Assembly (NCBI GenBank): GCA_964416335.1
Contig: CAYQDN010000004.1
Span: 64,518 to 128,517, forward strand
Direction: 5' to 3'
DNA: 64,000 nt
DNA from: an uncultured Azospirillum sp.
GTDB lineage: Bacteria; Pseudomonadota; Alphaproteobacteria; CACIAM-22H2
Each line of letters opens with the position of its first letter. Positions within the stretch are counted from its first letter, which is position 1. Made by a program: the position numbers and the translations under genes. This document shows, in pieces, positions 10,117 to 37,920 of the stretch. The notes beneath the pieces are model-generated. The model saw only the letters and a program-made list of their open reading frames with translations. It was not told the origin of the DNA and did not search any database.

Positions 10117-10191
10117 TGGTGCCGGGTGAGGGGATTGAACCCCCGACCTTCGGTTTACAAAACCGCTGCTCTACCGCTGAGCTAACCCGGC
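10117..10191 (-). tRNA. tRNA-Thr (anticodon TGT)
   Basis: Reverse complement reads GCCGGGTTAGCTCAGCGGTAGAGCAGCGGTTTTGTAAACCGAAGGTCGGGGGTTCAATCCCCTCACCCGGCACCA. It has a 7-bp acceptor stem, D and T arms (GGTTCAATCC), the anticodon loop TT-TGT-AA and an encoded CCA. 75 nt. Confidence 0.9.
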
Positions 10192-10193
10192 AT

Positions 10194-11474
10194 CTATTTG
10201 ATACGTCTAAGTTTCGCCTTAGTATCCGTTCGCGTCCGTTCTGCCAAGTGGGACTTCTCAGTGGGACTTTGGCCTTTGAAGAGCGGACTTGCCGGTAACC
10301 GAGAGGTCGAGCGCATCGCCGCAACTGCGGCGCGTTTTGCGCTATCGGCGACCTCTGTATAGAGGGCGGTCGTGGCTGCGCTTTTATGGCGGGCCAAGCT
10401 TTGAGTGGTCGCCGAGGATGCGACCAGTGCCACCTGGGTTATGTATGTCGCGCGAAGGTCATGAAACCGCCAGCGTCCACCCATCCCGAACCTCTTGAGC
10501 ACGGTTGACCAAGCGCGTCGCGCATTCTTGATGGGGCGGGGCGGGAAAGGCCTTCCGTCGGATTGGAGACCTGGTGCTGAATACACAATCAATGATTCGC
10601 AAGCTTGCTTGCGCTCAGCAGCGAACATTGCAAGCCACGAGAGCAATTCTAGAGCTTCGTCATTTGCATTGAGTATCTCGTCCCGATTGGCTTTCGTTAT
10701 GGCTGCCGGAAGTCGGAGAGCTTCGGCTTCCCAATCAATCCAATTCGTTTTTGCTTTGAAAACTTCCGACAGGCGAAGTCCGAACAGGCGAACAAGAGCG
10801 GCGGCTTGCCAAAGGTGATCAGGTGTTGCCGGATCTGATTCAATTCGCGCTAGGACAGCCAGCGGAACCGGATTTGGATCCCTCTTTGCCTCGGTAAGCT
10901 TCTCGATTTTTGGCATCCACGTGAGGCGAAGCTGGCCGTCTGGTCCTCGTGTATTGTGAGCAAGCCGAAGCGTTGCCGAGAGCTGATCCAAATATCGATT
11001 GGTACGTGCAGGGGATCGCGGCCGATTGAGTTCGATCATCAAATCGGAAAGCTCTTCTTTATTGCTTCTGTCCGCAGTCTTTGGTCCGCCACGCCACTTC
11101 TTGACGATTTGCCTGCGGCAAAAGGCGCGATATTCCATCCAGCGGTTCGCTACCGAATCAATTGGGGCGGCAGGGCCAAAAAATTCAAGAATCTCCGCCT
11201 GCATAGGCGCTATATCGCGCCAATTTCTTAGATGACGAGCTTCCTCCACTCGCGCTGCAACAGCCTGCGCCAGCGTATAAACCTCACGGGTCGACAGGGC
11301 AGCCTTGGTGTCCTTTCGTGCGATAACCCGCGCCGCTTCTTCACACGCCTTGGCCTGACGTCGAGAGATCGCAGGTGAGCCATCCGCATTCATGCATTGG
11401 CGCTTGAAGCGAATGCCATTTACCCAAAAATCAAAAGTCCAGGATCTGGTCTTTTTATCGACGTAAATTGACAT
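10194..11474 (-). CDS. int: tyrosine-type site-specific recombinase (phage integrase family)
   Basis: C-terminal catalytic region RFHDLRATYITQ...LYTE (the HxxR...Y motif). About 425 aa. Its stop lies 3 nt from the tRNA-Thr 5-prime end. Confidence 0.9.
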   Translation of the reverse strand: MSIYVDKKTRSWTFDFWVNGIRFKRQCMNADGSPAISRRQAKACEEAARVIARKDTKAALSTREVYTLAQAVAARVEEARHLRNWRDIAPMQAEILEFFGPAAPIDSVANRWMEYRAFCRRQIVKKWRGGPKTADRSNKEELSDLMIELNRPRSPARTNRYLDQLSATLRLAHNTRGPDGQLRLTWMPKIEKLTEAKRDPNPVPLAVLARIESDPATPDHLWQAAALVRLFGLRLSEVFKAKTNWIDWEAEALRLPAAITKANRDEILNANDEALELLSWLAMFAAERKQACESLIVYSAPGLQSDGRPFPPRPIKNARRAWSTVLKRFGMGGRWRFHDLRATYITQVALVASSATTQSLARHKSAATTALYTEVADSAKRAAVAAMRSTSRLPASPLFKGQSPTEKSHLAERTRTDTKAKLRRIK

Positions 11475-12346: not shown

Positions 12347-13324
12347 TCACGTACGATCGCGAAGTAGTGTGCCGCAGGCGTCGAACTGCTTGAATGCTGC
12401 CTTCAGAAATTCGCGCACGAAGTTCATCTGTGTAAGCCCTAGGTGCTCATCTGTGGCGCCAGCAGCGCTGAAAGAGATATTGAGGCGATCAATCCGCTGA
12501 AAGATTCCCGTCGAGATCTCAGGGATTTCTATCTCGATACCGCCAGCCGCTAGCAGCTCTCGGCGTGCATTAGAGCCGTTATATGCCGCGAAACTGTCGG
12601 CCATACGCATATTCTTGGCAGCAATCCAGTGGACGCGATCTCCGAGAAGTCTGACGGCTTCACCTAGGCTGGCGACACCGGTCGTAGAGCCATCAACAAG
12701 GAATAGGACAATGATTTCGAGTTCGTCGGCAGTGGCCGCATGCAAAGCCCCGCCATCCGCGAGCCATTGGAAAGCGCCTGGGCTTTTCCGGGCCGAGTAG
12801 TCAAAAAGGGCTATTGCAGGCCCAGCCCGGTCTAGAAGCTCGTCGAGCACAGGTGCGATGGAGTCGATATCCTGCGTATCGACAGCAATAACCGGCTTTG
12901 CGCAGAATCTTGAGAAATCCAGAACACTCGGATCGCCGTCATAAGCGGCATACTCGACTCCCTGAAAGTCGTACCAGGCAGAAAGTAGACCTGCCGTGAT
13001 CGAGCGTCCGACACCCCCCTTGCCGCCATGTACAAGGACAAGGCGCCGCTTAGCACCTTGGATATCAGGAGCGGCGGAAGATTGGAGGGCGATCGGTGCT
13101 TCGCGGATATCCATCTGCGGAATGTTTTGCGGCGGCGAAACGGGCGATGCCGATAGTGGCGTAACTTCGTCGCGGGGCAGGAACGCGCTCTGAAGAGTAA
13201 AGCGCGGCATCGTCGGATGCTCATTCTGCAGCCGCAAATAGGCTGCGACAGCCTCGACAGTCTTCGCGTCTCCGTCTGTCGGGACACGAACCCGGACCCG
13301 AACGCCTGTTGTCTGGTCTTCCAT
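12347..13324 (-). CDS. ParA/MinD-like P-loop ATPase with about 90-aa N-terminal extension
   Basis: Deviant Walker A VLVHGGKGGVGRS (Arg where the P-loop Lys is expected), followed by a ParA-like layout. It is located in the mobile-element backbone. Confidence 0.65.
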   Translation of the reverse strand: MEDQTTGVRVRVRVPTDGDAKTVEAVAAYLRLQNEHPTMPRFTLQSAFLPRDEVTPLSASPVSPPQNIPQMDIREAPIALQSSAAPDIQGAKRRLVLVHGGKGGVGRSITAGLLSAWYDFQGVEYAAYDGDPSVLDFSRFCAKPVIAVDTQDIDSIAPVLDELLDRAGPAIALFDYSARKSPGAFQWLADGGALHAATADELEIIVLFLVDGSTTGVASLGEAVRLLGDRVHWIAAKNMRMADSFAAYNGSNARRELLAAGGIEIEIPEISTGIFQRIDRLNISFSAAGATDEHLGLTQMNFVREFLKAAFKQFDACGTLLRDRT

Positions 13325-13742: not shown

Positions 13743-13907
13743 AATTAGTCGATGCGATTTTTTAGGTGAATCAATATATTCAAATAAAATCATATAGATA
13801 TGGTATCTTCAGGAGTTTTGAACGGATGATAAATTAGATAGGCAGGATTACGATAATGGCGTACAATTAATTCTACTCTACTCATTATCGGAAGGAATTT
13901 GGGTTCG

Positions 13908-14447
13908 ATGGCATCGGCAAACCCAGTCCGTGCGCCTTCGCCAGAGGAGCCTTCTGGCTCAATCGATCGGGTGTCGGGAAGTCAGACGATGCCGGAAAAG
14001 AGGAGACTTGGACGGCCACCTGGCTCGGGGGCGAGCTCGCCCAGGCTATCGGGTCGCCTGAACATTCGGCTGGCAGAGACCGAATGGGCTGTTATCCGTG
14101 CCGCAGCAGCTGAAGCCGGATGGTCGGTAAGTCGGTATGTGCGTACCGCGTTACTTGAGCGCGCCAGGGATACGAGAATTGGCGTCCTTGCCCGAGAGGA
14201 GCGCGAGCTGATGGCGGCGGGGCTATTCGAGCTACATCGCCAAGGCAGCAACCTCAATCAACTCGCCTTTGCGGCAAACAAGGCGCTGGCGCTCGGCCGG
14301 CTACAGGAGTTTCCAGACGGATCTGATCTCGAGGAGGCCGCAGCGGCGGCGAAAGCCGCCATCGGAAGAATAACGACGCTTCTTGAGTCTGCTGGTAGCC
14401 GACTTCATCGATCCTCCAAAGCAGGTTCCAATGTGGCGGAGCGATGA
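13908..14447 (+). CDS. mobC: MobC-family mobilization (relaxosome accessory, RHH) protein
   Basis: RLNIRLAETEWAVIRAAAAEAGWSVSRYVRTALLERA matches the ribbon-helix-helix core of MobC. ATG at 13908 is preceded by GAAGGAA. The ORF track starts at a TTG at 13899. Confidence 0.7.
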   Translation: MASANPVRAPSPEEPSGSIDRVSGSQTMPEKRRLGRPPGSGASSPRLSGRLNIRLAETEWAVIRAAAAEAGWSVSRYVRTALLERARDTRIGVLAREERELMAAGLFELHRQGSNLNQLAFAANKALALGRLQEFPDGSDLEEAAAAAKAAIGRITTLLESAGSRLHRSSKAGSNVAER

Positions 14448-16503
14448 CACCGATTTCTGGAAGCGGCTGCGTGCCGGTAAGCTCGATGAGCGCGATCATG
14501 ATGCGCTCGGATTTCTGCCCCTAGGCCATCGTGGCGAGAAAGCGTTTATCCGACTTGCGATCCGGGCGAGAGCGCGCCGAATACTGACGGATTGGGGGAC
14601 AAAGCCCCGCAAGCGAACCGGAGTCATGACAGGCCGTGGGCACGGGTCCGCTCCATTGCTACCGCTTCAACCGCCACCGGCCATCGTGGTTAAACAAGTA
14701 TCTGTCGCGCGGCCAAAAGAGGCACTGCGCCGAATTGCTCGCTACATCGGACGGCTCGATGTCGATTACGAAGACGGCAAAGCGGAATCTGCAGCTGAGC
14801 GCACTTTGACGGCGGCCGATCCAGCTGACTCTGCCAAGAAGAAAAGAAAGCCAGCAACTGCCTCACTCGATGCATCGAAAATTGAGCGGAGACCGCCAGC
14901 CATTTTCGACGCCAATGGAAACAAGATCGATCGCGACGAGATGCTCGCGCTTCTGGAAGACTGGGGCCTATTTGCAGACCGCGAGCATCTGACCCCAAAG
15001 GGACGAAGAGTGCTCACGAATGGGGGTGATGGAGCCCTGCGAAACCTCACCGAAGCTGAAGCGTTCTCAGCCGTCCAAGGGCGACACATCGTCATCTCCT
15101 TTCCGAAGAACGATCGGCTCTACAATTCAAAACTGGAAGAGATTGCGCGCCAGTTTCTGAAAGAGACATTTGGCGCTTGGGGGTACCCAGCCATTGCAGC
15201 GGTGCATGCAGAACACGGGCGCTTCCGTCATCTGCATATCCTGGTTGGGAACGTGAAGACATGCTCGCTCGCAATTGAAAATGTCGATCGCCGGCGCCTG
15301 CGCGACAAAAATATCGAGCGTTTCTTTTTTGACCTCGACGGATTCATGGCTGATGGCTTGCGTCTTGCGGCGGTTCAGGTCGCGGAGAAGTTCGGATTCC
15401 ATCTCGATGCCTCTCGCCGCGAAGATCGGCGTGATGTCGTAGACAGAATTCTCGCCGGAACTGAGCGGCTTCGCCCTCGTCCAATCAATGAAAAGTGGGA
15501 CGATCGATCTCTGGAGTTTTTCGCCGAGCGGGAGCTCGCACGGCAGAAGACTGAAGGTTCGATCAATCCATTGCGTGAAATGAATCCAACGCTTCGTCGC
15601 CTTGTGCAACGAGCACCGAGCTTTGTCATCAAGCATGTTGACACGCTCGTGGCCAATTTTCTGGCCGACCAGCGTCGACGCAATGCTTCGGAGCCTTATC
15701 CTGTTCCGGCAACCAAAGTGGAAATGGGAGGTGGCTTCATCCAGCGTATCTTCGGTGTTGCCGGTACACCCGAACGCCCTGTAACCCAGCCGGATGGTTC
15801 ACTTCAGCCTTTTGCCGATGCAATCCGAAAGCGGCAAATATTCGAAGATCAGGGCGGAGTTGATCGAACAAATGAGGCGATCGAGATGTGGGATGACTTG
15901 CGGCGCGAAGACGCGGCACTTGCAAACACAGCTCTCGTAACCTGGCCGGAGCTTTTTGGTCCAGTTACAGAGAGCGCAATTGGTCTACGAAAAGACTCGG
16001 AACTAGTAGACCTGACCAAGTCCGTCGCTTTGCCGACGAATTTCGCGCTGGATCCCGAGGCGGAAAAGCAAGATTCAAAATGTCAAAAGCATGCAAGCCC
16101 TGATGCCAGAACGGCATTGATGGTTCGTGCATTCAATGCACTTTCAACAAAGCTTGAAGAACTGTCAGATTTCGACACTGGAGACCGCACGGCGCGCATC
16201 GATCAATTGGCAATCTCCGACAGTTATCTGCAGTTGGCAAAGACCATCAATGCAGCTTTTCCAGACGATATTGATATGTTGCAGCAGGCGGTCGAGTTGA
16301 GAAGACTGTCGGCGATTGTCCGATCATTGGAGCGCGTGCCCACAAACGGCGATATGCCAAAACAGATCGAAGAATTCTTGATTTCTATCGAACCTGATAT
16401 GGCTCCAAAAAAGCCCGCTTCAATAGCGTCGCTCGAGCCAACTAAGAAAGACGGAGGTACCGAACTTCAGAAGAAACTTCGAGGGGGGCGGGAACTGGAT
16501 TGA
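14431..16503 (+). CDS. conjugative relaxase (MobA/VirD2-like, His-triad type)
   Basis: Motif III HAEHGRFRHLHILVGN (H-x-E-x5-H-x-H) with an upstream candidate catalytic Tyr (NDRLYNSK) and a long C-terminal region. The first ATG, at 14431, overlaps the mobC 3-prime end by 17 nt. The ORF track starts at a TTG at 14383. Confidence 0.75.
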   Translation: MWRSDDTDFWKRLRAGKLDERDHDALGFLPLGHRGEKAFIRLAIRARARRILTDWGTKPRKRTGVMTGRGHGSAPLLPLQPPPAIVVKQVSVARPKEALRRIARYIGRLDVDYEDGKAESAAERTLTAADPADSAKKKRKPATASLDASKIERRPPAIFDANGNKIDRDEMLALLEDWGLFADREHLTPKGRRVLTNGGDGALRNLTEAEAFSAVQGRHIVISFPKNDRLYNSKLEEIARQFLKETFGAWGYPAIAAVHAEHGRFRHLHILVGNVKTCSLAIENVDRRRLRDKNIERFFFDLDGFMADGLRLAAVQVAEKFGFHLDASRREDRRDVVDRILAGTERLRPRPINEKWDDRSLEFFAERELARQKTEGSINPLREMNPTLRRLVQRAPSFVIKHVDTLVANFLADQRRRNASEPYPVPATKVEMGGGFIQRIFGVAGTPERPVTQPDGSLQPFADAIRKRQIFEDQGGVDRTNEAIEMWDDLRREDAALANTALVTWPELFGPVTESAIGLRKDSELVDLTKSVALPTNFALDPEAEKQDSKCQKHASPDARTALMVRAFNALSTKLEELSDFDTGDRTARIDQLAISDSYLQLAKTINAAFPDDIDMLQQAVELRRLSAIVRSLERVPTNGDMPKQIEEFLISIEPDMAPKKPASIASLEPTKKDGGTELQKKLRGGRELD

Positions 16504-16677: not shown

Positions 16678-19600
16678 ATGTGTGCCGAACGAAGGAATCC
16701 AGAAGCTGATGCCAAGTTAATAAATCTGGAAGAGCTTATGGCGTCACTGAACCTTGCGCAAAAGAGCAAGGGCACTTTGCGAATTTCAGAGCTGTTGGAA
16801 TCCTGCGGCGAATTTTCCAGTTCTATTCGATTGCTTCACCCAATAAAGGCGATTGCGACGATTGGTGGCTTGCTGACCCATCCGGGCCTACAAGCAAATT
16901 GCCTTCGTCTAGAGGCGATGGCTCATTTGGCAGTATGTGAAGCACGCGGTAAGCAGAAGCCAAATGGAAAATTGATTACGAAGTTCTTTCATTCTTTGGA
17001 AAATTCTCTGGGAGTTCTTGAAGATCCAATCGAGGATCTTTTCGTTTCCCGTGTTTCCTCAGAAAGAGGGGATTATCGAATATTTGGTGGCATAGCTGAG
17101 GGGGCCGCCTTTCAGCTGCAGCGGTTCCTGGACATAGTGGAAATGATGCCGAGTGGCACCATTTATGATGAGCTGCGTGACGAGATCCATTCCTTACTTC
17201 TGTTGTCTGACGTAGTAGCTGATCGCGCCGATTTGCCGGCCAACATCGTTGGAGCTGCAATGCCGCAATCGCGTATGCCATTGAGCATTCTGAATGCATT
17301 ATCGTCACTTAGAAAAACCGTTACGTTCACGACCCAAGAGCTATCGAAGCTAGGTATACGCCGCAATCATTTGCGAGGGTTTTGCTTTCAACCCGATGAT
17401 AGATCGGCGCTTGAAAGTGAGGCCATTGGGCACAGCCAACTGGAAAGTAAGCCAATAATCTTGACGGAGAGTGGGGTCGTGCTTGCGCTCCCCACTGCTG
17501 TAAACGTCGCAGTTCGTCGACGTATCATCGAGCGCTGCCATCAGCTTGGTATCCAAGAAGGACTCTTTAAATCGTACCTTGGTTGCTACGAGCGGACTCT
17601 TCACAACATGCCGATCTTGGGCATACCGCGGCGAGCACCAGTGCGTTTTCGGGCAGTTGGCCCATGCTGGTTTGCGCAGTTCATGACAGAAATTGACGCT
17701 GGTCGATGGTTACATTTCATAGCGATTGCAGATGATTTCGTGGGCTACGATAAAAATGGTCTGGCAGGTGTGAATGCCGATCCAGAAACCGCCGGAGCTT
17801 GCATCAAAGCCGAAATAGATAAAGCAATTGGATCTCTACAAGGAAAGCCAGAGTTTCGAAACGGCATAACACTCGTTGTGGTTTGTGGCTGGGGGCGAAC
17901 TTTTGCGACATCTCAGCAACCTGTTCGCCCAAATTGGAATTGGGAACTAATCAGCGCCCATGACCTTGCGACTTTGAGCTACTTGAACGGATTTAATCCA
18001 TGCGAGCTTTGGCGAGTTATCCATGACGAGGAAGAGCTAACTCGGTTTGATCTACGCCTTCAGAATCCCAATGGCTTGCTCAATTTGATCGCATGGGAGC
18101 GGCAGTTGAGCGGGCACCTCATTCCACATGCCAAACTCTTAGAAGTCGGTTCGACAGATAAACGTCCGACGATCCTCCAGATTGAACAGAACGGATTGCT
18201 AAAGCTGCGGGCGGAGGTTGCTATTGCTCACGATTGTCGGCGGCTTGGCGATAACAAGGGTCGAAGGTTAAGGGTTAGTCGCTTTGGGCAGGGGCACTTC
18301 CAAGAGGATAGACGGAAGGCAATTTATGTAGCCGAAGACGAGATTCTGGACGGCAAGTTAATGGGCGCGGTTGCGACGCCTGGTCGTGTTTGGTGGGTTT
18401 CCGTAGACGGTAATAGTCCGAGGGAAATGCTGTTTCAGTACTGGGAGATGCTTCTCCATTGGATGCACGAGTCCTCATCTGTACTCGATCTGGAGCTATC
18501 AAGCTTACTAGCCGGACCAATCCATTGGTCCGTTTGCTTTAATGAACTGACGCCGGCAATAGAAACACAACCGGGGCCTATCGATTGGTCGCGTGCCAGT
18601 TCTCTGCTTCAAACACGGATTTTTCCAGAGGATGGATCTGTATTCTTGGATGTGGACCCTCGTTTCCAAGAATCATTCCATCACCCTGAAAATCGAGCAG
18701 AGCGACTGCTCGTTGAAGTATTGGTCGAGGCAACAGCTCGATTGGTTGGGGCGAAGTTATCCGCAGAGCGTTTGGCAGAATTGGTAGGTCGAATCGTTCC
18801 GAATGTGGAAGCTAGACATATCCATGCATTTGAACAGCGTGAATTTAGAGATTTTTTCCGAGACAAGATCCCATCCAAATATATTTCGATAGCGCAGCAA
18901 GACGCCGCGAGATTGAGCCTTAGTCTTGGGTGGCGTGCGCGGCCACGTGAGGCGCTGGATTCGATCGTAGGAAAGCCAGAATGCACGACATTTCTAAATG
19001 CAACCGTAGCACTCTTGGAAGAGGAGCTTTGCCGCAATCTGGCTCGGTATCCCTGTGAAGCCTTGGTAAAGCGTGTTGTGCTCAACTATGAGAGCGCCAA
19101 TCAAGATTCTCTCACGTGGACTCGCTCTTCAGCAGCTTTGCTCGCTCTCTGTCGCGACAAGAGTGATGCGCTAGAGGTGATCTCCGATCGTAGCGCGGAA
19201 AGGAATGCTGTACTTCAGACATCTCGAATCATCATTGAAGCTGCCACGTGCGAGTGCCCGACGGAAGGTGGCGAGGCGGTCGGCGATATCGATGTCTCTC
19301 GGCTCATGGCAATCGTTTCGTGCATTGTGCATCTTGGCGGTTGGTCAGATGCTATTAGATGGGACGCGCTTGAGCCGCATTTAAAAATATCACCTTTTGG
19401 AGAAATTCTGAAATCGGCGCACTTCGAGGATGCCATTCTTGAGCCGTTCGGGCGCGCCAGTAGTGCGCGATTTGTGCGCGATGCAGTGTCGCGTTATCCC
19501 AAGCACTATGAAGAGATCAACGCCATTTCAAAGGTGGAGGCATCCTTCGATCAAGCGTTCGTAGTGGCCTTTCAGGCCGAGCTGGGAGTTTCTTTAGATG

Positions 19601-20478
19601 ACTGTAGAGGCATCATTGACGCATTCGAGAACGAAGCGATAAGTCGTGGAGAGCCAATTCTTTTCGCCTCACGCGCGGAGATGCTTGGATATGCGTACGA
19701 TGGGCGCGTGACGCGGGGGGCAATTGAGAAGTTCGCGAATGCCTTTTCGATGCAGCCTCGCTTGTCGTGGAGAGTGCCGCCCAAGGGCTATAAGCCGCGT
19801 GATCGCGAGCCTTGGCGGTATAGACGAAGATTGTCCACGTTGAGACTGCCGATATTGCAGCTAGATAGTTCCGAGAATCCAAAGATTCTTGTCGCACCAG
19901 GAATGTTGAGAGAATCATTCAACTATCTTTTGGGGGGCTATTACTTCGGCAATTTTGACAAGGCCTTTGTCTCTTCAGACGAAATGCGGAAGTGGATCGG
20001 AGCCGCCGCTAATCGGCGAGGCCACAAGTTTAATGAAAAAGTGGCAGCTCGAATGCGTGAGCTTGGATGGGAAGCGCAAGCCGATGTTCGGGTTGCCCAC
20101 CTTCTTCGCAAAGGGCTCCCGCGCGATTATGGTGATGTCGATGTTGTCGCCTGGAATCGAAGTTCGGGAAGAGTTTTGATTATGGAGTGCAAAGACCTCC
20201 AGTTCCGTAAAACACACGGTGAAATCGCCGAACAGATCTCCGACTTCCGCGGCGAGTTAGATGAAGATGGACGGCCGGATCTATTAAAAAAGCATTTGGA
20301 TCGTCTCGACATCGTTACGGCCCATCTGATGGAGGTGGTTCAGTTTTGTAAACTTTCAAAAGAGCCAGTTGTTGAAGGTCATGTCGTATTTAGGAATCCT
20401 GTTCCGATGCAGTTTGCTTGGAAGCGCCTAGCGCATTTGATTCGTCTGTCTATCTTTGACGCTTTAGAATCATTGTAG
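16678..20478 (+). CDS. large (1266 aa) hypothetical protein with C-terminal NERD/PD-(D/E)xK nuclease-like domain
   Basis: Long unbroken ORF in a roughly 50% GC region with unbiased composition. No Walker A motif was found. The C-terminus YGDVDVVAWNRSSGRVLIMECKDLQFRKTHGE fits a D-x-D...E-x-K restriction-endonuclease-like or NERD motif. A hairpin terminator follows. Confidence 0.7.
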   Translation: MCAERRNPEADAKLINLEELMASLNLAQKSKGTLRISELLESCGEFSSSIRLLHPIKAIATIGGLLTHPGLQANCLRLEAMAHLAVCEARGKQKPNGKLITKFFHSLENSLGVLEDPIEDLFVSRVSSERGDYRIFGGIAEGAAFQLQRFLDIVEMMPSGTIYDELRDEIHSLLLLSDVVADRADLPANIVGAAMPQSRMPLSILNALSSLRKTVTFTTQELSKLGIRRNHLRGFCFQPDDRSALESEAIGHSQLESKPIILTESGVVLALPTAVNVAVRRRIIERCHQLGIQEGLFKSYLGCYERTLHNMPILGIPRRAPVRFRAVGPCWFAQFMTEIDAGRWLHFIAIADDFVGYDKNGLAGVNADPETAGACIKAEIDKAIGSLQGKPEFRNGITLVVVCGWGRTFATSQQPVRPNWNWELISAHDLATLSYLNGFNPCELWRVIHDEEELTRFDLRLQNPNGLLNLIAWERQLSGHLIPHAKLLEVGSTDKRPTILQIEQNGLLKLRAEVAIAHDCRRLGDNKGRRLRVSRFGQGHFQEDRRKAIYVAEDEILDGKLMGAVATPGRVWWVSVDGNSPREMLFQYWEMLLHWMHESSSVLDLELSSLLAGPIHWSVCFNELTPAIETQPGPIDWSRASSLLQTRIFPEDGSVFLDVDPRFQESFHHPENRAERLLVEVLVEATARLVGAKLSAERLAELVGRIVPNVEARHIHAFEQREFRDFFRDKIPSKYISIAQQDAARLSLSLGWRARPREALDSIVGKPECTTFLNATVALLEEELCRNLARYPCEALVKRVVLNYESANQDSLTWTRSSAALLALCRDKSDALEVISDRSAERNAVLQTSRIIIEAATCECPTEGGEAVGDIDVSRLMAIVSCIVHLGGWSDAIRWDALEPHLKISPFGEILKSAHFEDAILEPFGRASSARFVRDAVSRYPKHYEEINAISKVEASFDQAFVVAFQAELGVSLDDCRGIIDAFENEAISRGEPILFASRAEMLGYAYDGRVTRGAIEKFANAFSMQPRLSWRVPPKGYKPRDREPWRYRRRLSTLRLPILQLDSSENPKILVAPGMLRESFNYLLGGYYFGNFDKAFVSSDEMRKWIGAAANRRGHKFNEKVAARMRELGWEAQADVRVAHLLRKGLPRDYGDVDVVAWNRSSGRVLIMECKDLQFRKTHGEIAEQISDFRGELDEDGRPDLLKKHLDRLDIVTAHLMEVVQFCKLSKEPVVEGHVVFRNPVPMQFAWKRLAHLIRLSIFDALESL

Positions 20479-20603: not shown

Positions 20604-21101
20604 CTAAATAGCAGAAGCCCCATCTCGGTTCGCGGCCGAGGTGGGGCTTTTTTGCATGGTTGTTTGTCGTTCCTTAGTCTCCCAGTTTTTAAATATCGAA
20701 TGATCGATCCAAGTACCCAATCGGCCCCACAGCGGTGGCCTATCATGTCGCTCGTCGATCCATTCCGTCGTATCGATGCAGTCGACCCTCGCCCAAACGG
20801 CGATCTCGCAAAGCATGTTTAGCCATCCGAGCGGCCGTGCTTCGTTTGCTGCCTTGCAGGACTGGAGTGCGCGGTTTGGGATCGCCCATAGCACTTCCCA
20901 GTAGATGTCGAGATCCGGCGGTAGAGTGGCAAAGGCCAGGGACCGGGCCTGCACTTCAGTCAGCGATTTCACGTTCGTGAAGTATGGCCGCGGGAGCGCG
21001 AACAGCAGCCGGATCCGCTCGGCGAAGCGCTCGAACTCCGGAAGGGCTGCCGTCTGTTCGTGGATATCAACGATCGTGGCTGTGCCGACCTGATGCATCA
21101 T
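20604..21101 (-). CDS. hypothetical protein (last gene of the NERD operon)
   Basis: 165-aa ORF whose start overlaps the upstream stop (ATGA). Its 3-prime end overlaps the terminator hairpin, so the true C-terminus may be shorter. Confidence 0.45.
   Translation of the reverse strand: MMHQVGTATIVDIHEQTAALPEFERFAERIRLLFALPRPYFTNVKSLTEVQARSLAFATLPPDLDIYWEVLWAIPNRALQSCKAANEARPLGWLNMLCEIAVWARVDCIDTTEWIDERHDRPPLWGRLGTWIDHSIFKNWETKERQTTMQKSPTSAANRDGASAI
20617..20653 (+). terminator. rho-independent terminator for the 1266-aa gene
   Basis: GCCCCATCTCGG-ttcgcgg-CCGAGGTGGGGC forms a 12-bp stem with one G-U wobble, followed by TTTTTT. It lies between convergent genes. Confidence 0.65.
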
Positions 21102-21436
21102 GAAGGGTACATCCCCTTTATCAACGTTTCCCGGATCTTTCGTAACTCTTCGTCGATGTCGATATTAGATTGGATCGAGCGCCGACGCTCGAATGCGGGG
21201 AATTCGAGCTCATCATCCTGCGTCGCTCGGACTGAAAGAATGAAATGCCCTTCGGCGATGCAGCGAAGGAGATAGTCGCGAACCGATATGCCCATCCGAT
21301 CGGCTACGGCTTTGGCGCGTTGGTAGGCGGCTCCGGATTCCAGGAACTTCAGCTCGATCGTTGGTGGCGCAGAGGGCGCCGCGCCGTCTTGCGATATGAC
21401 GGCCGGGCTCGGCGGAGTAGGGCGTGGGCCACTCAA
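21098..21436 (-). CDS. small ribbon-helix-helix (CopG-like) domain protein
   Basis: AYQRAKAVADRMGISVRDYLLRCIAEGHF resembles an RHH DNA-binding module. Both ends overlap neighbouring genes by 4 nt (ATGA), implying translational coupling. Confidence 0.45.
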   Translation of the reverse strand: MSGPRPTPPSPAVISQDGAAPSAPPTIELKFLESGAAYQRAKAVADRMGISVRDYLLRCIAEGHFILSVRATQDDELEFPAFERRRSIQSNIDIDEELRKIRETLIKGMYPS

Positions 21437-22707
21437 TAGCGCCAGACCCCACGATCGCCCTCCCGGCAGGCGACCACGTTGTAGGTCTTCCCCGAATAGG
21501 ACATCTCCGCGAACTGGCAGCCAGGGCGTCCGGTAACTGGCCCGAGCGCCCGGACCCAGTCCTTGTCGCCGGCGGCGATACGTTTCTCGGGCTCACTTGT
21601 CGCCTTGGTCAGGGCGGCCTGGATCGGGTCGGGTGTTGGTGCCGCCCGTGCTGGTGTTCTCGCGACGATTTGACTAGCCGGTGGTGGCGTTGGCGCCAGT
21701 ATCTGGCTGGGGCGGCCTGCCCAGATTGAGAAGGCGATGAGAATTGCCAGCCCGATGCCAAGCTTGTTGATCCAGCGACTTGGCTTCCGGATCGGTTCAG
21801 GGGGCTTGGGGCTTATCTTGGTCAAGAAAGTTCGCACGTCCTCGGACTTCAGGTGCGGACCTTCATGACGACGCTGTTCTTCGACCGGTGGTGCCTTCGA
21901 AAAACTCAAGGGCTTCGGTGACGGGTTGATGATCGCTTCGATCTCTTGTCGAACGAGATCAGGACCTGGTCGAACGTCGAGCTCGCTCGTCATCCAGCTG
22001 ATCAGCCGGGTGGTATCGTCCCCCGAGAGCAGATAACCGATACCCGGTCGTGACAGCTCATCGGCGACCAGTGCCCACATACCGAATTCGGCCAGATCCT
22101 CCGCGAAGACGATCCGCATGAAGTCACGGTCGGGGGCATAGAGGCGGCTCAGGATCGATGGACCGATCTGCGTCCGGGATGTATGGGGAAACACCATCAG
22201 CTGGCCGATCCGGGGGCCCAGATCGATGCCGGTCATTGCTCGGGCGGTAAGCGAGAAAGTATCAGTCAACCGGAACAGCTGCGCCGGCCTTACGTGGCCG
22301 CCTGTCGGTTGGCCACTCCGTGTGAAATGAGCCCAACGTACGCTTGGGCCGGGGCGGCCGTTGACCTCGACGAGGCCGCCCTTGACCTCGATCAAAGCTA
22401 CCCCGTGGGGGGTAACGGCGACGAAGTCCGCCTCGAGGCGGTGATTGCCGTCGAAGGGCAGGGGTAGCGAATAGGCTGCGTATCCGATGAACTGGGGTGT
22501 GTCCCACAGGAAGGATTCGTAAACGAGCCGCTCGCCGTCGTGTTGCGGTTCGGCGAGGACGACCGGGGCCGGCCATGGCGTGACCCGTACCTGTTCGGGG
22601 CGACCAGATGGGAGTGCCTCAACCGACGTCCCCTCTCGTCCAGTTTGGTTGACGAGATTCCAATAGACTCCGCGGGCCTGCCAAGCGGCCAATTCGTTGT
22701 TGTCCAT
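21433..22707 (-). CDS. NERD (nuclease-related domain) protein with one transmembrane helix and Pro-rich linker
   Basis: NERD core HRLEADFVAVTPHGVALIEVKGG (D/E...E-x-K). A hydrophobic helix WINKLGIGLAILIAFSIWAG is followed by a Pro-rich segment and a C-terminal domain. Confidence 0.7.
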   Translation of the reverse strand: MDNNELAAWQARGVYWNLVNQTGREGTSVEALPSGRPEQVRVTPWPAPVVLAEPQHDGERLVYESFLWDTPQFIGYAAYSLPLPFDGNHRLEADFVAVTPHGVALIEVKGGLVEVNGRPGPSVRWAHFTRSGQPTGGHVRPAQLFRLTDTFSLTARAMTGIDLGPRIGQLMVFPHTSRTQIGPSILSRLYAPDRDFMRIVFAEDLAEFGMWALVADELSRPGIGYLLSGDDTTRLISWMTSELDVRPGPDLVRQEIEAIINPSPKPLSFSKAPPVEEQRRHEGPHLKSEDVRTFLTKISPKPPEPIRKPSRWINKLGIGLAILIAFSIWAGRPSQILAPTPPPASQIVARTPARAAPTPDPIQAALTKATSEPEKRIAAGDKDWVRALGPVTGRPGCQFAEMSYSGKTYNVVACREGDRGVWRY

Positions 22708-22789: not shown

Positions 22790-23020
22790 ATGAAAGCGCG
22801 GGAAATCCTTGCTCGGAATGTGCGGCGGTTGCGTGCGGAGCGCGGGATGTCACAGGAGAAGCTTGGGTTCGAGGCTGAAATTTCGATGACCTATGTAAGT
22901 CACATCGAAACTGAAAAATATGCGGCCACAATTGATGTGATTGGGAAGGTCGCGAAGGCTCTGAAAGTGACGTTGAGCGAGCTGTTATCCGAGCCGCCAA
23001 AGCAGCGCCGCTCTAAATAA
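22790..23020 (+). CDS. XRE-family (Cro/CI-type) HTH transcriptional regulator
   Basis: ILARNVRRLRAERGMSQEKLGFEAEISMTYVSHIETEKYAATIDVIGKVAKALKVTLSELL is a canonical HTH_3 domain. 76 aa. Confidence 0.85.
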   Translation: MKAREILARNVRRLRAERGMSQEKLGFEAEISMTYVSHIETEKYAATIDVIGKVAKALKVTLSELLSEPPKQRRSK

Positions 23021-23575
23021 ACATACGGTGTCATTTTGCGCGGACAACTGGCACATCCGATCAGCGCGTCGTGTAGGCCGGCGTAAGGTTCGCAAACCGC
23101 GTCTGCCAACTCGGGCGAATACCCTCGCCGGCGACTTTTAGCGATCCGCGTCCCATGCGCCCGTTCAGGGCGTCGACAGCAGCCATGAGCTTGATCCGTC
23201 GCGGATCGCCATTGGTCTCGAACAGAGAACGCTGTCCCGTTCCGGCGGACGCCAGGCCATCCGCAACGACGCCTGCCTTCGAGTATCAGAAGCAGTCCCG
23301 CCAAATCTGCTTTGCCGCTTTGACCGAAGCCGATACCAGCTCGAACGCGTCGGCCGACGGCTCGAGCAGCCGCGCACTGGTCGAATTCGCATAAGATGGA
23401 TCGCCATTGAGATTGCCTACAAATGTCTAGCTGTTTTGCCAAAGATCATTGACCTGTTTTCATCGCAGCGAAAAGTAAGAATATGATTTTAAATGATTAT
23501 TCGCCCATTCGAGCATATGAAACATATCAGGAACAAATTTCTTCAAGATAATCGAGAAACATCCTATGATAGGCC

Positions 23576-24907
23576 ATGTCAAAAGTTGTCACCGACAATC
23601 AGGTATTGGGGGAGCTGGGCGAGACAGCGATCAAAAAAATCGTGCTCGAAACTGGTTTCATCTATGAGCATCGCGGGCGACTGGAAGCAGGTACAGACGG
23701 TCTAGTCGAGCTACGTGATCCGCGCAGTGGCGCGCCACTTGGCAAAATGCTTGCTGTGCAAGTTAAATCCACAGATGTCGGGAAGTATATTCGTGAAGAT
23801 GAGCGCGGATTCGAATACCTACTCAAGCCAGATGATCTGAAATATTGGCGTACGTCAAACATCCCAGTCGTGATTGTCCTCTGGCGTAAGTTCGACCAGA
23901 CAGCTTATTGGAAAGAAGTCACTGATTGTGTAGGAGGCGAAGAGCGCCGCCTGAAATTCGACAAGCGCGCAGATGTTTTTGATGGTTCATGCGGGGATCG
24001 GCTCGGTGAGCTGACCATCGACCGTCGCACGCCTGGCGTATTCCTTCCGCCGCTGAATCACGGGGAAGGCGCGATTATCAATCTGTTGCGGGTGAAGTTG
24101 CCAGAGGAAATATTCATTGCAACATCACCATTCGGCAGCGGTCGGGATGCCGTTCCCGAGCTAGTCAAGCATGCAAATATCCGCTTCGATTGGGTCATCC
24201 GTAAGCGCCGTTATGTTTCCTTCTTCGATCCCCGAGAATATGGCACCTCTTCGATTGTCGATCTCGATCAAGTCGAGGCTGTCGATGCGAGGCAAATCAC
24301 GATGAACGATGAAACAGATGATTTGAATGATACTATTGATTTGCTGCGCCGCACGATCGAGCGACAAGTAGGAGCACAGCTTTCCTATCTGCGCAAAGAT
24401 CGACTCTTTCACTTCAAGGCTACCGATGTTCGCAAGGGCCGTAGCTATCGCTACATGGCGAACGTCAATGAGACCTCTGCCAAGGTGGTAAGCGTCTATT
24501 CAAGCAAAAAGAAGGAAGGGCGTGGCTACGTCCGACATCACGCGGCTCGATTGCGCTTCGAGCGACTATCTGACGAATGGTTTCTTGTTATTGATCCAGA
24601 CTATTACTTTACGTTTGATGGATTTCAGCCGCACCGCTATCCAGAAGCATTGCTCGCTGGCAAGAAGCGCCTTGAGCGTAATGCCGCTGTGCGCGGCCAG
24701 GTCATAATGTGGCAGCACCTACTGGTTAACAGCGGAAAGAACGAAGTTGGCCTGTTTGATGCGGGCAAACCAGCGCCGTTTCTTCAGTTCGAACGACTTC
24801 CGGTTCTCCAGCTCTCCCAGGCCGTTCCGGAAGATTCATGGAGCCGGACCGACCCCCGCGCTAAAGATATGGAAGCTTTCGACCTCTTCGAGGAAGGAGG
24901 TCTGTAA
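23576..24907 (+). CDS. DUF4365/DREN-type PD-(D/E)xK nuclease domain fused to APAZ-like region (short-pAgo partner, SPARDA-type)
   Basis: N-terminus GELGETAIKKIVLETGFIYEHRGRLEAGTDGLVELRD...MLAVQVKST gives a D...E...QxK nuclease motif characteristic of DUF4365 (Mrr-like). The roughly 300-aa remainder, of unknown fold, sits where APAZ does. Its stop overlaps the pAgo start (TAATG). Confidence 0.7.
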   Translation: MSKVVTDNQVLGELGETAIKKIVLETGFIYEHRGRLEAGTDGLVELRDPRSGAPLGKMLAVQVKSTDVGKYIREDERGFEYLLKPDDLKYWRTSNIPVVIVLWRKFDQTAYWKEVTDCVGGEERRLKFDKRADVFDGSCGDRLGELTIDRRTPGVFLPPLNHGEGAIINLLRVKLPEEIFIATSPFGSGRDAVPELVKHANIRFDWVIRKRRYVSFFDPREYGTSSIVDLDQVEAVDARQITMNDETDDLNDTIDLLRRTIERQVGAQLSYLRKDRLFHFKATDVRKGRSYRYMANVNETSAKVVSVYSSKKKEGRGYVRHHAARLRFERLSDEWFLVIDPDYYFTFDGFQPHRYPEALLAGKKRLERNAAVRGQVIMWQHLLVNSGKNEVGLFDAGKPAPFLQFERLPVLQLSQAVPEDSWSRTDPRAKDMEAFDLFEEGGL

Positions 24908-26361
24908 TGAGTTTCAAAGCACAAGTTTTTGATGAACCGATGCTGGAATTTGGCGATGGTGGTCAACATTGCGATCCCCGGCAAGGCTTGCGCGAATATG
25001 GGCCATTGCAGCCAGGTTCGGGCGATATCGTGCGCGTGGGCGTGATCGGAACGGACGAAACTGTCGCGGGTTTTGCAGAATTTTTGGAGGAGACCGGACG
25101 AGGCATCGAGAGCGGCAACAAGCAACTCATAAATCTGAACCCGGATTTTCCCGGATTGGGAAATCAAAATCCGTTCCGCTGCAAGTTCGAGGTTCCGGAG
25201 GGAGCAACCGCAACTATTTCGCGACGACAGGTTAACGAAATCAGAGAAATCAAACGGCATGACGACGCTGTCAATTACGCAGTCGAACTGATCACAGCGC
25301 AACTTTCCGCTCTGGTCGAGAGTAGCGCCAAGCCCGATGTTATCGTGCTCGCTTTGCCGGTGCCGCTGATCGAAAAGCTGGTAAATGCCAAAAGTGAGGA
25401 AGAGGCAGAAGCCGCCGAAGAAAACGAAGATCGCGGAGGGATGTTAAACTTCCGTGACCTGTTGAAAGCCAAGACTCTTCATCTACCGGTACCGAGCCAA
25501 ATCGTATGGCCAGATACATGGGATGACGCCGCAAAAATTCCTCGCAAAGTGAAGCGGGACAGCAATCGCCAAACGCAAGTCAAAGCGACTCGTGCATGGA
25601 ATCTATTGAACGCGCTGTTCTACAAAACGGGTAAGGTGCCATGGCGCTTGCTTCCAGATCGGGCTGAATATCGTACAAGCTTTCTTGGTATTGGGTTCTA
25701 TCGCGATATTGACGGTCAGCAGCTTTGGACTAGCACGGCACAGATGTTTGATGAGCGAGGTCGTGGGCTCATCCTGAGGGGCGCCCGTGCGCAGACAGAA
25801 ACTCGCGGTCGCCATCCGTATCTGACGGCGCACGACGCAGAAGATTTAGTTTCGCAATCCATTGCGGCGTACAAGTCGCATCATCGCCATGTCCCGGCAC
25901 GCTTGATTGTCCTAAAAACATCACGGTTTCGACCCGAGGAAGCAGAGGGCATAGATGCCGCCCTCAAGAGATTCAATGTCGAGATGTGCGATCTTGTTTG
26001 GGTGCAAGAAAGTTCACCGATCGCGATCTTCCGTGACGGCAACTATCCAGTTTTACGAGGAACGTTTGTCGATCTGGGAGGCAAGGGCTTACTTTACACC
26101 CGCGGTAGCGTGCCATTCTATGGAACGTATCCAGGACTACGAATTCCCCGCCCGTTAATGCTCGTGCCGCACCAGAATTCGGATAGTAATCTGCTCACAT
26201 TGGCGAAGCACGTGTTGGCGCTGACCAAGGTCAATTGGAACTCCACGCAATTTGACCAGAAACTTCCTGCACCAATCAAAGCGGCTCGAGAAGTCGGTCG
26301 CATCCTAAAACATGTGAAATTTGGCACGGCAGTCTCGCCGGATTTCCGCCGATATATGTGA
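24907..26361 (+). CDS. short prokaryotic Argonaute (MID-PIWI only, catalytically inactive type)
   Basis: MID-like PDVIVLALPVPLIEKL. Argonaute-typical LLNALFYKTGKVPWRL followed by FLGIGFYRD, which occupies the position of the first RNase-H strand. A RIIFYRDG-like LIVLKTSRFRPEE follows. No DEDX catalytic tetrad is evident. 484 aa. Confidence 0.7.
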   Translation: MSFKAQVFDEPMLEFGDGGQHCDPRQGLREYGPLQPGSGDIVRVGVIGTDETVAGFAEFLEETGRGIESGNKQLINLNPDFPGLGNQNPFRCKFEVPEGATATISRRQVNEIREIKRHDDAVNYAVELITAQLSALVESSAKPDVIVLALPVPLIEKLVNAKSEEEAEAAEENEDRGGMLNFRDLLKAKTLHLPVPSQIVWPDTWDDAAKIPRKVKRDSNRQTQVKATRAWNLLNALFYKTGKVPWRLLPDRAEYRTSFLGIGFYRDIDGQQLWTSTAQMFDERGRGLILRGARAQTETRGRHPYLTAHDAEDLVSQSIAAYKSHHRHVPARLIVLKTSRFRPEEAEGIDAALKRFNVEMCDLVWVQESSPIAIFRDGNYPVLRGTFVDLGGKGLLYTRGSVPFYGTYPGLRIPRPLMLVPHQNSDSNLLTLAKHVLALTKVNWNSTQFDQKLPAPIKAAREVGRILKHVKFGTAVSPDFRRYM

Positions 26362-26905: not shown

Positions 26906-28330
26906 ATGGTCGATACCTACCAAGGCAGCCTTTTCTCTGGCGACTTTCTGACTGACTCCATTACTCGGCTGCCCGATTGGGCGGAGGTGTCCGACAGCGA
27001 AATCGCCAGCCTCTCCGGCAAGCTTACTGAAATTATCGCTAAGTTTCCAACCAGGCAGTCGCCCAACGAAGCGCAAACTGAAGATGATCTCATCTGGAAA
27101 GTGCTCGGTGCACTCGGCTGGACGGATTTCCTCCGTCAGCAGAATCTTGCGCCGAAAGGTCGCGAGGACGTGCCGGATGGTCTGTTGTTCAGGAATGACG
27201 CCGCCAAGGCCCAGGCCAACAAGACCCCAGATGAATGGAGACGCTACGAATTCGGGCTTGCCGTTGTGGAATCTAAGCGTTGGAATCGTCCTCTTGATCG
27301 CCGATCAGGAACGCGCGGTGAAGAAACCGCGCCATCGACGCAGATGCTGCGCTATTTGCGCCGCGTCGAGGATCTAACGACTGGCAAATTAAGATGGGGC
27401 ATTCTTACCAATGGCGGACGTTGGAGGCTCTACTATCAAGGAGCCCGCTCGGTCGCCGAACACTTCTTCGAAATCGACCTTGCGCAGATTCTAGGAATTG
27501 AGGGGCACGAGGGCGGCTTGTTCTCACTCAAAGTGAGCCAACGCGCCCATGCGCTTCGCGTTTTTTATCTGATATTTCGGAAGGCCGCCTTTATCGGCAC
27601 CGCAAGCGATCCGCGGACTTTCCATCAACGCGCGCTCGATGAAGGCCGCTTCTATGAAGAAAGAGTTGCCGCCAATCTTTCTGATCTCGTGTTCGGCGAA
27701 GTCTTCCCAAAGTTGGTGCACGCCATAGCAAACGCTGCGCCCAGCGCGCCGTTGCAAAGTGTGCGCGAGGCCGCCCTGATTCTTCTCTACCGCCTCCTAT
27801 TCATTCTGTATGCAGAAGATCGCAACTTACTTCCTGTGCGTGATCCTCGTTACGACGATTATGGATTGCGTGATAAAGTGCGTGGAAATGTCGGAGATCG
27901 CAAAACCAAGAACGACGTGTTCTCCGATACGGCGGCCCGCTATTGGTCAACGATTGACGATTTGTGTCGAGCCATCGATAAAGGTGACAGCTCGATTGGG
28001 CTTCCTCCTTACAATGGCGGGCTGTTCGACCGGGAGCGTACACCTCTGCTGACAGAGGTGCGGATACCCGATGCGGTCATGGCCGACGTCATCGACGCCT
28101 TGTCCTTTGAGCAAACGCCGGCAGGACGACGCTATATCAACTATCGTGATTTGAGCGTGCAACAGCTCGGCTCGATATACGAGCGCCTGCTTGAGCATGA
28201 AGTTGACCTGACCGGGTTTTCTTGGACCAGGCTGATTGAGATAATCAGTTTGGAAAGGAGCCCCGGTCAGGTCACGTGTAAAGCGCTGACAGAAGTCTCC
28301 CTCCGTAGTCCGGCCGGTGGACGATCGTGA
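26906..28330 (+). pseudogene. truncated type IIL/IIG (MmeI-like) restriction-modification enzyme, N-terminal nuclease plus helical part only
   Basis: N-terminal PD-ExK (PDGLLF...GLAVVESKRW) and the conserved LLYRLLFILYAEDRNLLP motif of MmeI/Eco57I-like enzymes. It stops after 474 aa without any methyltransferase motifs, and a frame-shifted 68-aa ORF follows (28317-28523). The gene ends at the island GC boundary. Confidence 0.65.
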
Positions 28331-36858: not shown

Positions 36859-37920
36859 CTAGATAGCTGCGGTCGGCCCCGCAACGTTCAACCTTACCTG
36901 GATGGTCGAAATTGTTTCGACGATCTCTTTGAATGGAATGACGTCGCCAAAAATCATCTGCGACATCAGCGCGTAGTCGGCCTCAAGTGCGGCAAGCAGT
37001 CTGCCCTCAGGCACAAGGTTAAAGCTGCCAGGTATGAACTGGTCAAGCCTCTGCCAATGCTTCCAATAGGTCCTCTTGCAGTGTTCGCAAACTTCAGATC
37101 CCAGATCTGCGTCGGCAAGAAACTCTTCGCCTCTCGGGTTCTGAAAGATCTTTGCGACATCATAGTAGTGCCTCGATATCCGATTCCGATCAGCCGGGAT
37201 TTCTACATTGCCCGTATACCGGCAGGCTTGGCCGTGCAGGATTATTAGCTTCTCCCAGAATGTCCGCTGTGGCTCGATCGCCAAAACGTTTCCGATATTA
37301 ATTTTCCCCGGAACTACTTCCGAGATATACGGCGATACTTCGCTAATTGATTTCGGTCTCAGGCCGCCGCGAACGCCAATCTCGAGCTTTACGGTCGACG
37401 TGAAGTATCCGTTTGGATCAGCTTCCGTGATCGACGGATATCGGAGCCTCAGGGTGGTTTCGTGTTCGTTGTTTCCTTCAAACTCGATCGCTACCCTTTG
37501 TCCATACGCATCGAAGAGATTTCGTAAATCCGGGACTATGAAATTTTCAACGTGCTGCTTGCAGGTAAGCTGCACCTCTTCGAATTTTCTCTTTCTCGCC
37601 TCTCCACTTCCTACGAATTCAGCACTCGTCGGATCGTCTGGTCCCAGAAAGCCGAGCTGGGATGGCATCATGGTGAGATCGATATCTTCTGAGAATCTCT
37701 GGATAAGAGAATACAACTTCGATAGCGATGTACCGCCCTTAAAGATCAGCTCTTTGTTTCGGCCAGGATTGTGATTGAACAGTCCATCCAGAACCAGGCA
37801 AACCCAAAAATCCTTTTCAGCGAAGAACGCCAGGGCGCCATACTTTTCCATGGCTGCCAGAAACGCGGCGCGTCGATTGCCATCCGACTGTGCTAGAAAT
37901 TCACGGATGTTTGAATTCAA
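36859..37920 (-). CDS. abiEii: AbiEii/AbiGii-family nucleotidyltransferase toxin (type IV TA)
   Basis: Signature IFKGGTSLSKLYSLIQRFSEDIDL (the KGGT...SEDID motif of AbiEii). The TTG start overlaps the abiEi stop (TTGA). Confidence 0.8.
   Translation of the reverse strand: MNSNIREFLAQSDGNRRAAFLAAMEKYGALAFFAEKDFWVCLVLDGLFNHNPGRNKELIFKGGTSLSKLYSLIQRFSEDIDLTMMPSQLGFLGPDDPTSAEFVGSGEARKRKFEEVQLTCKQHVENFIVPDLRNLFDAYGQRVAIEFEGNNEHETTLRLRYPSITEADPNGYFTSTVKLEIGVRGGLRPKSISEVSPYISEVVPGKINIGNVLAIEPQRTFWEKLIILHGQACRYTGNVEIPADRNRISRHYYDVAKIFQNPRGEEFLADADLGSEVCEHCKRTYWKHWQRLDQFIPGSFNLVPEGRLLAALEADYALMSQMIFGDVIPFKEIVETISTIQVRLNVAGPTAAI

Follow-up and report, generated by a model that had tools for sequence, protein, structure and literature searches.

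The window analysed here is a 64,000-nucleotide (nt) stretch of a contig from an uncultured Azospirillum sp. (CAYQDN010000004.1, positions 64,518–128,517), and its gene 16678–20478 encodes a protein of 1266 amino acids (aa). The gene is almost certainly a divergent, full-length member of Upx, a family of stand-alone anti-phage proteins of ∼140 kDa without an NTPase. By analogy with its homologs, we regard a function in defence as very likely. The Upx family is already known, and what is newly added here is one divergent sequence in it.

The assignment is carried by profile and structure matches that span nearly the whole protein. In PADLOC, no family except Upx (PDLC02221) gave a match at E ≤ 1, and this model was matched end to end, with residues 53–1254 of the protein on profile positions 47–1257 of 1271 (E = 1.7e-250, 832 bits). 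In NCBIfam, the 'anti-phage protein Upx' model NF042954 gave E = 7e-271 and 901.3 bits (residues 54–1249 against positions 30–1224 of 1240). With phmmer, the sole sequence match in the PDB was 9wuf_A, the cryo-electron microscopy (cryo-EM) structure of Salmonella enterica Upx, hereafter SeUpx (E = 4.2e-163; query 58–1254 against chain 52–1258). Counted from the alignments, identity to 9wuf_A is 29.8% over 1,119 aligned positions. By domain, it is 33–36% in the C-terminal and 29% in the N-terminal one and falls to 20% in the middle domain, which is the least conserved part.

SeUpx (strain NCTC6026, SQI81149.1) and the protein in the window are of almost the same size (1272 and 1266 aa), are collinear over residues 58–1254, carry D...ExK in the same positions, lack an NTPase and are each encoded by a single gene. 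They differ in the modest identity just given, in the NCBIfam score, which for the window protein lies below the equivalog cut-off, and in one residue of the N-terminal domain (D122 of SeUpx corresponds to S127). Their genomic settings, hosts and target phages may differ as well. Two further Upx homologs have been tested, HpUpx from Hydrobacter penzbergensis and PbUpx from a Pyrinomonadaceae bacterium (PMC13601566). HpUpx and SeUpx share just 16% identity, yet Upx proteins still defend and respond to large terminases (PMC13601566). At ∼30% identity to SeUpx, the protein in the window is well within the divergence range of the tested homologs.

The domain limits in Table 1 were carried over from SeUpx (PMC13099982) via the HMMER alignment to 9wuf. 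The fold was predicted with two AlphaFold2 models, residues 1–750 and 701–1266, built on alignments of 55–56 sequences. The model of residues 1–750 has a predicted local distance difference test score (pLDDT) of 89.1 and matched 9wuf in Foldseek with E = 2.5e-52, a template modelling (TM) score of 0.86 and a root-mean-square deviation of 3.4 Å over 725 columns. No other PDB entry was matched by this half at E ≤ 0.001, and no ATPase fold was matched. The model of residues 701–1266 (pLDDT 93.7, predicted TM score 0.92) also had 9wuf as its only PDB match at E ≤ 0.001 (E = 4.6e-35, TM 0.71). Its next-best matches, the PD-(D/E)xK nucleases VC1899, NucS/EndoMS, Cdn1 and MspJI, were weak and not significant. 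Judged from these models, both halves of the protein share the three-domain fold of SeUpx. In the nuclease core the elements are modelled in the order alpha-beta-beta-beta-alpha-beta, and the C-terminal alignment to 9wuf residues 1021–1258 shows 36% identity. A preliminary description of this DNA, made from the letters by eye, had suggested checking the C-terminus by structure prediction and searching for remote homologs with Foldseek on AlphaFold models. The first check showed a PD-(D/E)xK fold that superposes on 9wuf, and the second, run on the two halves, returned 9wuf for both.

The C-terminal catalytic motif is strongly conserved. GDVDVVAW...LIMECKD is aligned over GDIDLLAW...LVIECKD of SeUpx, and D1155, E1170 and K1172 are the counterparts of the catalytic SeUpx residues D1161, E1176 and K1178. 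All three are kept in 56 of the 56 relatives that cover the site in a 57-sequence alignment (relatives 21–49% identical to the window protein). Among 66 full-length relatives that named genomes encode without interruption, a pattern search recovered the D...ExK triad in 64. The preliminary description had picked exactly these residues. It had placed them at the extreme C-terminus; the motif is found 94–116 residues from the end, within a nuclease core of ∼150 residues.

The same description had called the tail NERD/Mrr/Shedu-like and had seen a resemblance to the NERD motif of the neighbouring gene 21433–22707. Neither statement held. The protein has no match to NERD (PF08378) in Pfam at E ≤ 1, and Shedu, Mrr and the other nuclease-based defence profiles in PADLOC gave no match at E ≤ 1. 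BLASTP of the Upx nuclease core against the neighbouring protein found no related segment (best E = 0.064, in unrelated segments), and the neighbour's own match to NERD is below the Pfam gathering score (21.5 vs 22.1 bits). The NERD-like reading was ruled out on the missing NERD match and the missing similarity to the neighbour. What GDVD...ECK represents is the general PD-(D/E)xK signature rather than that of NERD. With AbiU-1 and the NERD- and Shedu-type nucleases the protein does share a restriction-endonuclease-like core with D...ExK. It differs from them in that no such profile matches and in the ∼1,100 residues ahead of the core, which have no counterpart outside Upx.

The gene itself is real and intact and very probably functional. 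Its GC content is 0.505, against 0.65–0.68 in the flanking core genes. An identical protein is present in the public collection in two forms, one of 1266 aa (from Logan contigs) and one of 1246 aa (from an NCBI contig). The shorter copy is 100% identical and begins at M21 (nt 16738), 20 codons downstream. Because the first ∼30 residues are of low confidence in the AlphaFold2 model and the N-termini differ among the homologs in the 57-sequence alignment, the start codon is uncertain by these 20 codons (16678 or 16738). About 130 nt past the stop codon lies a terminator hairpin with a folding energy of −33.1 kcal/mol (z = −5.74); none of 200 shuffled sequences folded as well. It was missed by a consensus terminator scan and confirmed by direct folding, and part of it is shared with the 3′ end of ORF (open reading frame) 20604–21101, which is convergent on the minus strand. 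A motif search of the protein found no Walker A, DEAD/DExH or NPPY-type motif. On the extent of the ORF, on a strong terminator belonging to the gene and on the lack of P-loop, helicase and methyltransferase motifs, the preliminary description was right.

Upx relatives are numerous and widely spread. A word-indexed search returned 90 homologs, nearly all of ∼1,250 aa. An exhaustive search with residues 50–1249 against 1.84 billion cluster representatives (clustered at 50% identity) gave 2,393 of them at E ≤ 1e-3, and 858 remained at E ≤ 1e-30. Species-representative genomes were scanned with a 20-sequence alignment as seed, the 57-sequence one being too diverse, and relatives were found in at least 149 stretches, 80 of which were kept. 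The taxa include Alpha-, Beta- and Gammaproteobacteria, Acidobacteriota, Planctomycetota, Verrucomicrobiota, Firmicutes, Spirochaetia, Campylobacterota and Saccharimonadales. Among plasmids, 6 of 72,556 records carry a relative, each annotated as 'hypothetical protein'. Neither tblastn against 50,697 phage records nor a search of PHROGs gave a match, and the gene is therefore not phage-borne. Relatives in public records are mostly unnamed or labelled 'hypothetical protein', and one from Variovorax paradoxus (QGW84405.1) is mislabelled 'zinc chelation protein SecC'. The strict NCBIfam cut-off probably leaves most of the Upx family without a name.

The neighbourhoods of Upx genes are variable. 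At 37 loci with long flanks we sampled the two ORFs closest to Upx in either direction (148 ORFs); PADLOC families occurred at most four times in this sample and Pfam families at most twice. The defence genes found beside Upx are Avs2, PtuA, AriA, MADS, AbiL and PDC-S06; the other neighbours include integrase, resolvase, transposase and RepC genes as well as housekeeping genes. The preliminary description had suggested looking for an enrichment of defence genes; the sample showed defence genes mixed with mobile-element and housekeeping genes. The pattern fits a single gene without a conserved partner that moves among variable regions.

Several properties of Upx proteins have been published. 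The discovery of Upx as a defence gene goes back to Gao et al. (2020; reference 17 of PMC13601566), and a cryo-EM structure and biochemistry of Upx were published in 2026 (PMC13099982). SeUpx is a monomer, and its C-terminal domain is a Mg2+-dependent, sequence-independent 3′–5′ exonuclease on single-stranded DNA (ssDNA) ends, helped by the middle domain (PMC13099982). The double mutation E1176A/K1178A abolishes defence against phage PhiV-1 (PMC13099982), and E1176A abolishes both defence and terminase-induced toxicity (PMC13601566). ExK-dependent phage protection has been shown for SeUpx and HpUpx only (PMC13099982, PMC13601566). In a genome-wide co-expression screen of PhiV-1 by Evans et al. 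(2026), the large terminase was the only activator, and of 37 terminases tested, a diverse selection activated each of three Upx homologs (PMC13601566). The terminase ATPase domain was sufficient for activation, and in AlphaFold 3 models unfolded terminase β-strands thread through the N-terminal sensor domain (PMC13601566).

We think it likely, by transfer from these homologs, that the 1266-aa protein is a divergent Upx sensor-effector nuclease. It would rest as an inactive monomer, in which residues ∼1–718, the N-terminal and middle domains, form a sensor for a phage protein made during infection. As trigger, the best-supported candidate is the large-terminase ATPase domain, which would be partly unfolded and bound by β-strand augmentation; for the protein in the window we lean slightly towards this trigger. 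Binding would license the C-terminal PD-(D/E)xK nuclease (D1155/E1170/K1172), and the nuclease, at residues 1115–1266, would degrade DNA and so stop the infection. Accumulation of phage DNA would be halted, and in the presence of the trigger the nuclease action would be toxic to the host cell.

Several points weigh against this explanation. Defence activity, trigger, substrate and outcome are here inferred from homologs only, and the function assigned to the protein and its clade draws on the homologs' experiments. The two published mechanisms conflict: one has gp16 as its trigger and direct immunity as its outcome, the other has terminase and toxicity/abortive infection. The mode of terminase binding comes from AlphaFold 3 models and not from a solved complex (PMC13601566). 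The nearest database relative, apart from the protein's own copies, is just 49% identical. The NCBIfam score is far under the curated equivalog cut-off of 1900 bits and by that standard the same function as SeUpx is therefore not guaranteed. That cut-off selects close relatives of SeUpx, however, and Upx as described in PMC13601566 includes tested members of 16% identity.

The strongest alternative is the dual-nuclease mechanism of Zhou et al. (2026), in which the N-terminal and C-terminal domains are both 3′–5′ ssDNA exonucleases and give direct immunity without cell death. The middle domain would block the N-terminal one until the ejection protein gp16 of PhiV-1 relieves the block. Zhou et al. 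termed the N-terminal domain of SeUpx an 'atypical nuclease' (PMC13099982). The isolated domain has nuclease activity and gp16 activates; moreover, D127A/R129A loses defence, and growth was seen at a multiplicity of infection of 3 (PMC13099982). The window protein keeps four of the five residues named for this site: at the positions of SeUpx D122, D127, R129, E147 and D173 it has S127, D132, R134, D152 (E to D) and D178. Across the family these residues are poorly conserved, whereas an essential catalytic site would be expected to be conserved like the C-terminal triad. In the 57-sequence alignment, 48 sequences have N at the D127 position (as do 42 of 56 genome-encoded relatives), 23 have N at the E147 position and 12 have L at the R129 position, and no residue dominates at the D122 position. 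Furthermore, gp16 was non-toxic in the genome-wide co-expression screen that had terminase as sole activator, and one homolog defends against T4, which lacks gp16 (PMC13601566).

Another part of the N-terminal domain is far better conserved. This is the acidic motif EDPIED, which directly precedes a β-hairpin at residues 123–136. E115, D116, P117 and E119 are invariant in the 57 aligned sequences, and EDPxE[DN] is present in 56 of the 66 full-length genome-encoded relatives, the other ten having near-variants such as QDPAED and EDAAED. The main texts of PMC13099982 and PMC13601566 do not mention the EDPxED residues. The published residues (D122, D127, R129, E147 and D173) may thus not be family-defining, and by inference the conservation pattern favours a non-catalytic or differently organised role of the N-terminal pocket. 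With the near-invariant xDPxED beside variable published residues, the pocket may have a role other than the published one. Because the named residues vary and EDPxED is conserved, we rank the sensor mechanism above the dual-nuclease one, which we consider rather unlikely. The pattern bears on the disputed mechanism of Upx and is a family-level observation, not a property of the locus in the window.

Other roles are less probable than the dual-nuclease one. Because Upx lies directly behind a relaxase gene and has ssDNA 3′-end exonuclease chemistry, it could do double duty against incoming conjugative ssDNA. Such double duty, or a trigger other than the terminase, would make the clade (at most 49% identical to others) a functional Upx variant, which appears improbable to us. 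Still less probable is that the protein mainly serves the mobile element, for instance by degrading the transferred strand of competing conjugative or mobilizable DNA. The relaxase and NikA-like genes, which end 174 nt upstream on the same strand, the action of SeUpx on 3′ ssDNA ends and the few relatives on plasmids would agree with such a role. Yet a neighbouring relaxase is no general trait of Upx genes: none is among the 25 most frequent flanking Pfam families listed for the 37 loci, where no family recurs more than twice. Relatives are also rare on plasmids. In addition, all experimental Upx phenotypes so far are anti-phage and triggered by phage proteins.

The idea of the preliminary description that the gene is an orphan, acting alone in defence, new to science and bearing a NERD/Mrr/Shedu-like tail, has next to no probability left: the local Pfam copy gave no match at E ≤ 1 and the homologs are labelled 'hypothetical protein', but the end-to-end Upx profile matches, the solved homolog 9wuf with its Foldseek superpositions, the 90 word-indexed homologs and the 2,393 representatives of the exhaustive search rule it out, and no NERD, Mrr or Shedu model matches. 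The impression of an orphan without a Pfam domain arose because the Pfam copy was older than PF28173.1 and did not contain it; this is the precomputed Pfam accession on all 90 homologs from the word-indexed search. The claim of novelty fell as well, since Upx had been described by Gao et al. and its structure and trigger have since been published. The guess that the gene encodes a single-gene, ATPase-less defence protein with a C-terminal PD-(D/E)xK effector did agree with what Upx homology suggests.

Avs proteins (Avs1-3, among them Avs2) are antiviral STAND NTPases that sense the large terminase. By analogy, the sensor-effector reading of Upx would resemble them in that a nuclease-type effector is joined in one polypeptide to a large sensor, which recognises terminase, a conserved protein of phages. 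The protein in the window differs in that it has no STAND NTPase, no Walker A, no PADLOC Avs match and no detectable similarity to Avs in sequence or fold, and an Avs3 structure was only a chance-level Foldseek match (E = 1.3) to the model of residues 1–750. Apo Upx, moreover, is a monomer. Some Upx genes are linked to Avs1 (PMC13601566), and an Avs2 gene adjoins one related Upx locus. In the window no Avs gene lies beside Upx, Avs1 included, and there is no second Upx copy, which is another association reported for some Upx genes.

Table 1. Features of the Upx gene and of the surrounding island. Positions are those of the window.
Feature	Position (nt)	Strand	Basis
tRNA-Thr(TGT)	10117–10191	−	ARAGORN
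Tyrosine integrase, left end of low-GC island	10194–11474	−	Pfam Phage_integrase, 40.4 bits
HTH_17 protein	between integrase and NikA-like gene in island order		
NikA-like mobilization protein and MobA/VirD2-type relaxase	13899–16503	+	Pfam NikA-like 41.4 bits, Relaxase 34.6 bits
Upx-family gene	16678–20478	+	ORF list and translation; uninterrupted, 1266 codons and stop
N-terminal domain, residues 1–520 (SeUpx 1–515), putative phage-protein sensor	16678–18237	+	alignment transfer, AlphaFold2, Foldseek
Conserved acidic motif EDPIED, residues 115–120 (SeUpx E110–D115)	17020–17037	+	57-sequence alignment
Middle domain, residues 521–718 (SeUpx 516–714)	18238–18831	+	alignment to 9wuf
C-terminal domain, residues 719–1266 (SeUpx 715–1272)	18832–20475	+	alignment, AlphaFold2, Foldseek
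PD-(D/E)xK nuclease core, residues 1115–1266 (SeUpx 1121–1272)	20020–20475	+	alignment, model
Catalytic motif YGDVDVVAWNRSSGRVLIMECKD, residues 1151–1173, with D1155, E1170, K1172	20128–20196	+	alignment to SeUpx
Intrinsic terminator, ∼17-bp hairpin then UUUUUU	20611–20655	+	RNA folding
Three-gene operon, convergent with Upx	20604–22707	−	stop/start codons overlap; 424, 112 and 165 aa
DUF4365/REase-APAZ (443 aa) and short prokaryotic Argonaute (pAgo, 484 aa)	23576–26361	+	PADLOC, 528 and 561 bits
Methyltransferase-like gene, 474 aa, right island edge	26906–28330	+	partial profile matches

The gene lies in an 18-kb tRNA-Thr-linked region, an integrative mobilizable element whose cargo is rich in defence genes. 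The GC content of this island is 0.54, against 0.65–0.68 in its flanks. The stop codon of the integrase gene (10194) is 2 nt from the 5′ end of the tRNA-Thr gene (10191), and the island is therefore on the 5′ side of the tRNA and not on the usual 3′ side. A search of the whole 64-kb window found no direct repeat stemming from the tRNA-Thr gene, so the right boundary of the island (∼28.4 kb) is set by the GC step and gene content only; high-GC sulfate-assimilation genes follow from 28530 on. The preliminary description had placed the gene between a relaxase and defence genes on a mobile element, and the integrase, tRNA, relaxase, short pAgo and GC step are in keeping with this.

Downstream of Upx, the lead gene of the convergent operon (424 aa) is the one with the sub-threshold NERD match mentioned above. 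The operon's proteins have no match in PADLOC, NCBIfam, PHROGs or the PDB, and the operon is a possible, uncharacterised defence candidate. The REase-APAZ and short pAgo genes overlap by 1 nt and, by their profile matches, are classed as a short-pAgo system of the SPARDA type. At the right edge, the 474-aa protein matches the profiles for type IIG restriction-methyltransferases and DrmMI, which are much longer, over their first ∼400–440 positions only, and its gene may be a stand-alone or truncated methyltransferase-like gene. Pfam, PADLOC, NCBIfam and PHROGs gave no match for two further minus-strand ORFs in the island, 12347–13324 (325 aa) and 22900–23442 (180 aa).

For annotation, a nameless gene or 'hypothetical protein' can now be labelled an Upx-family anti-phage nuclease. 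Likewise, the 18-kb region can be labelled a mobilizable defence island with Upx, a short-pAgo/REase-APAZ pair and other candidates. The protein adds one divergent sequence to a family of disputed mechanism, an ordinary addition that will not surprise specialists in phage defence.

Outside the island, an AbiEi/AbiEii toxin-antitoxin (abortive infection) pair at 36859–38576 on the minus strand opens a second lower-GC stretch. This stretch (36000–64000) has a GC content of 0.55, against 0.65–0.68 in the core, and contains genes of metabolism and regulation, for TetR, 3-hydroxyacyl-CoA dehydrogenase, ABC permease, RidA-like, CobW and IclR proteins. It may be a second acquired region.

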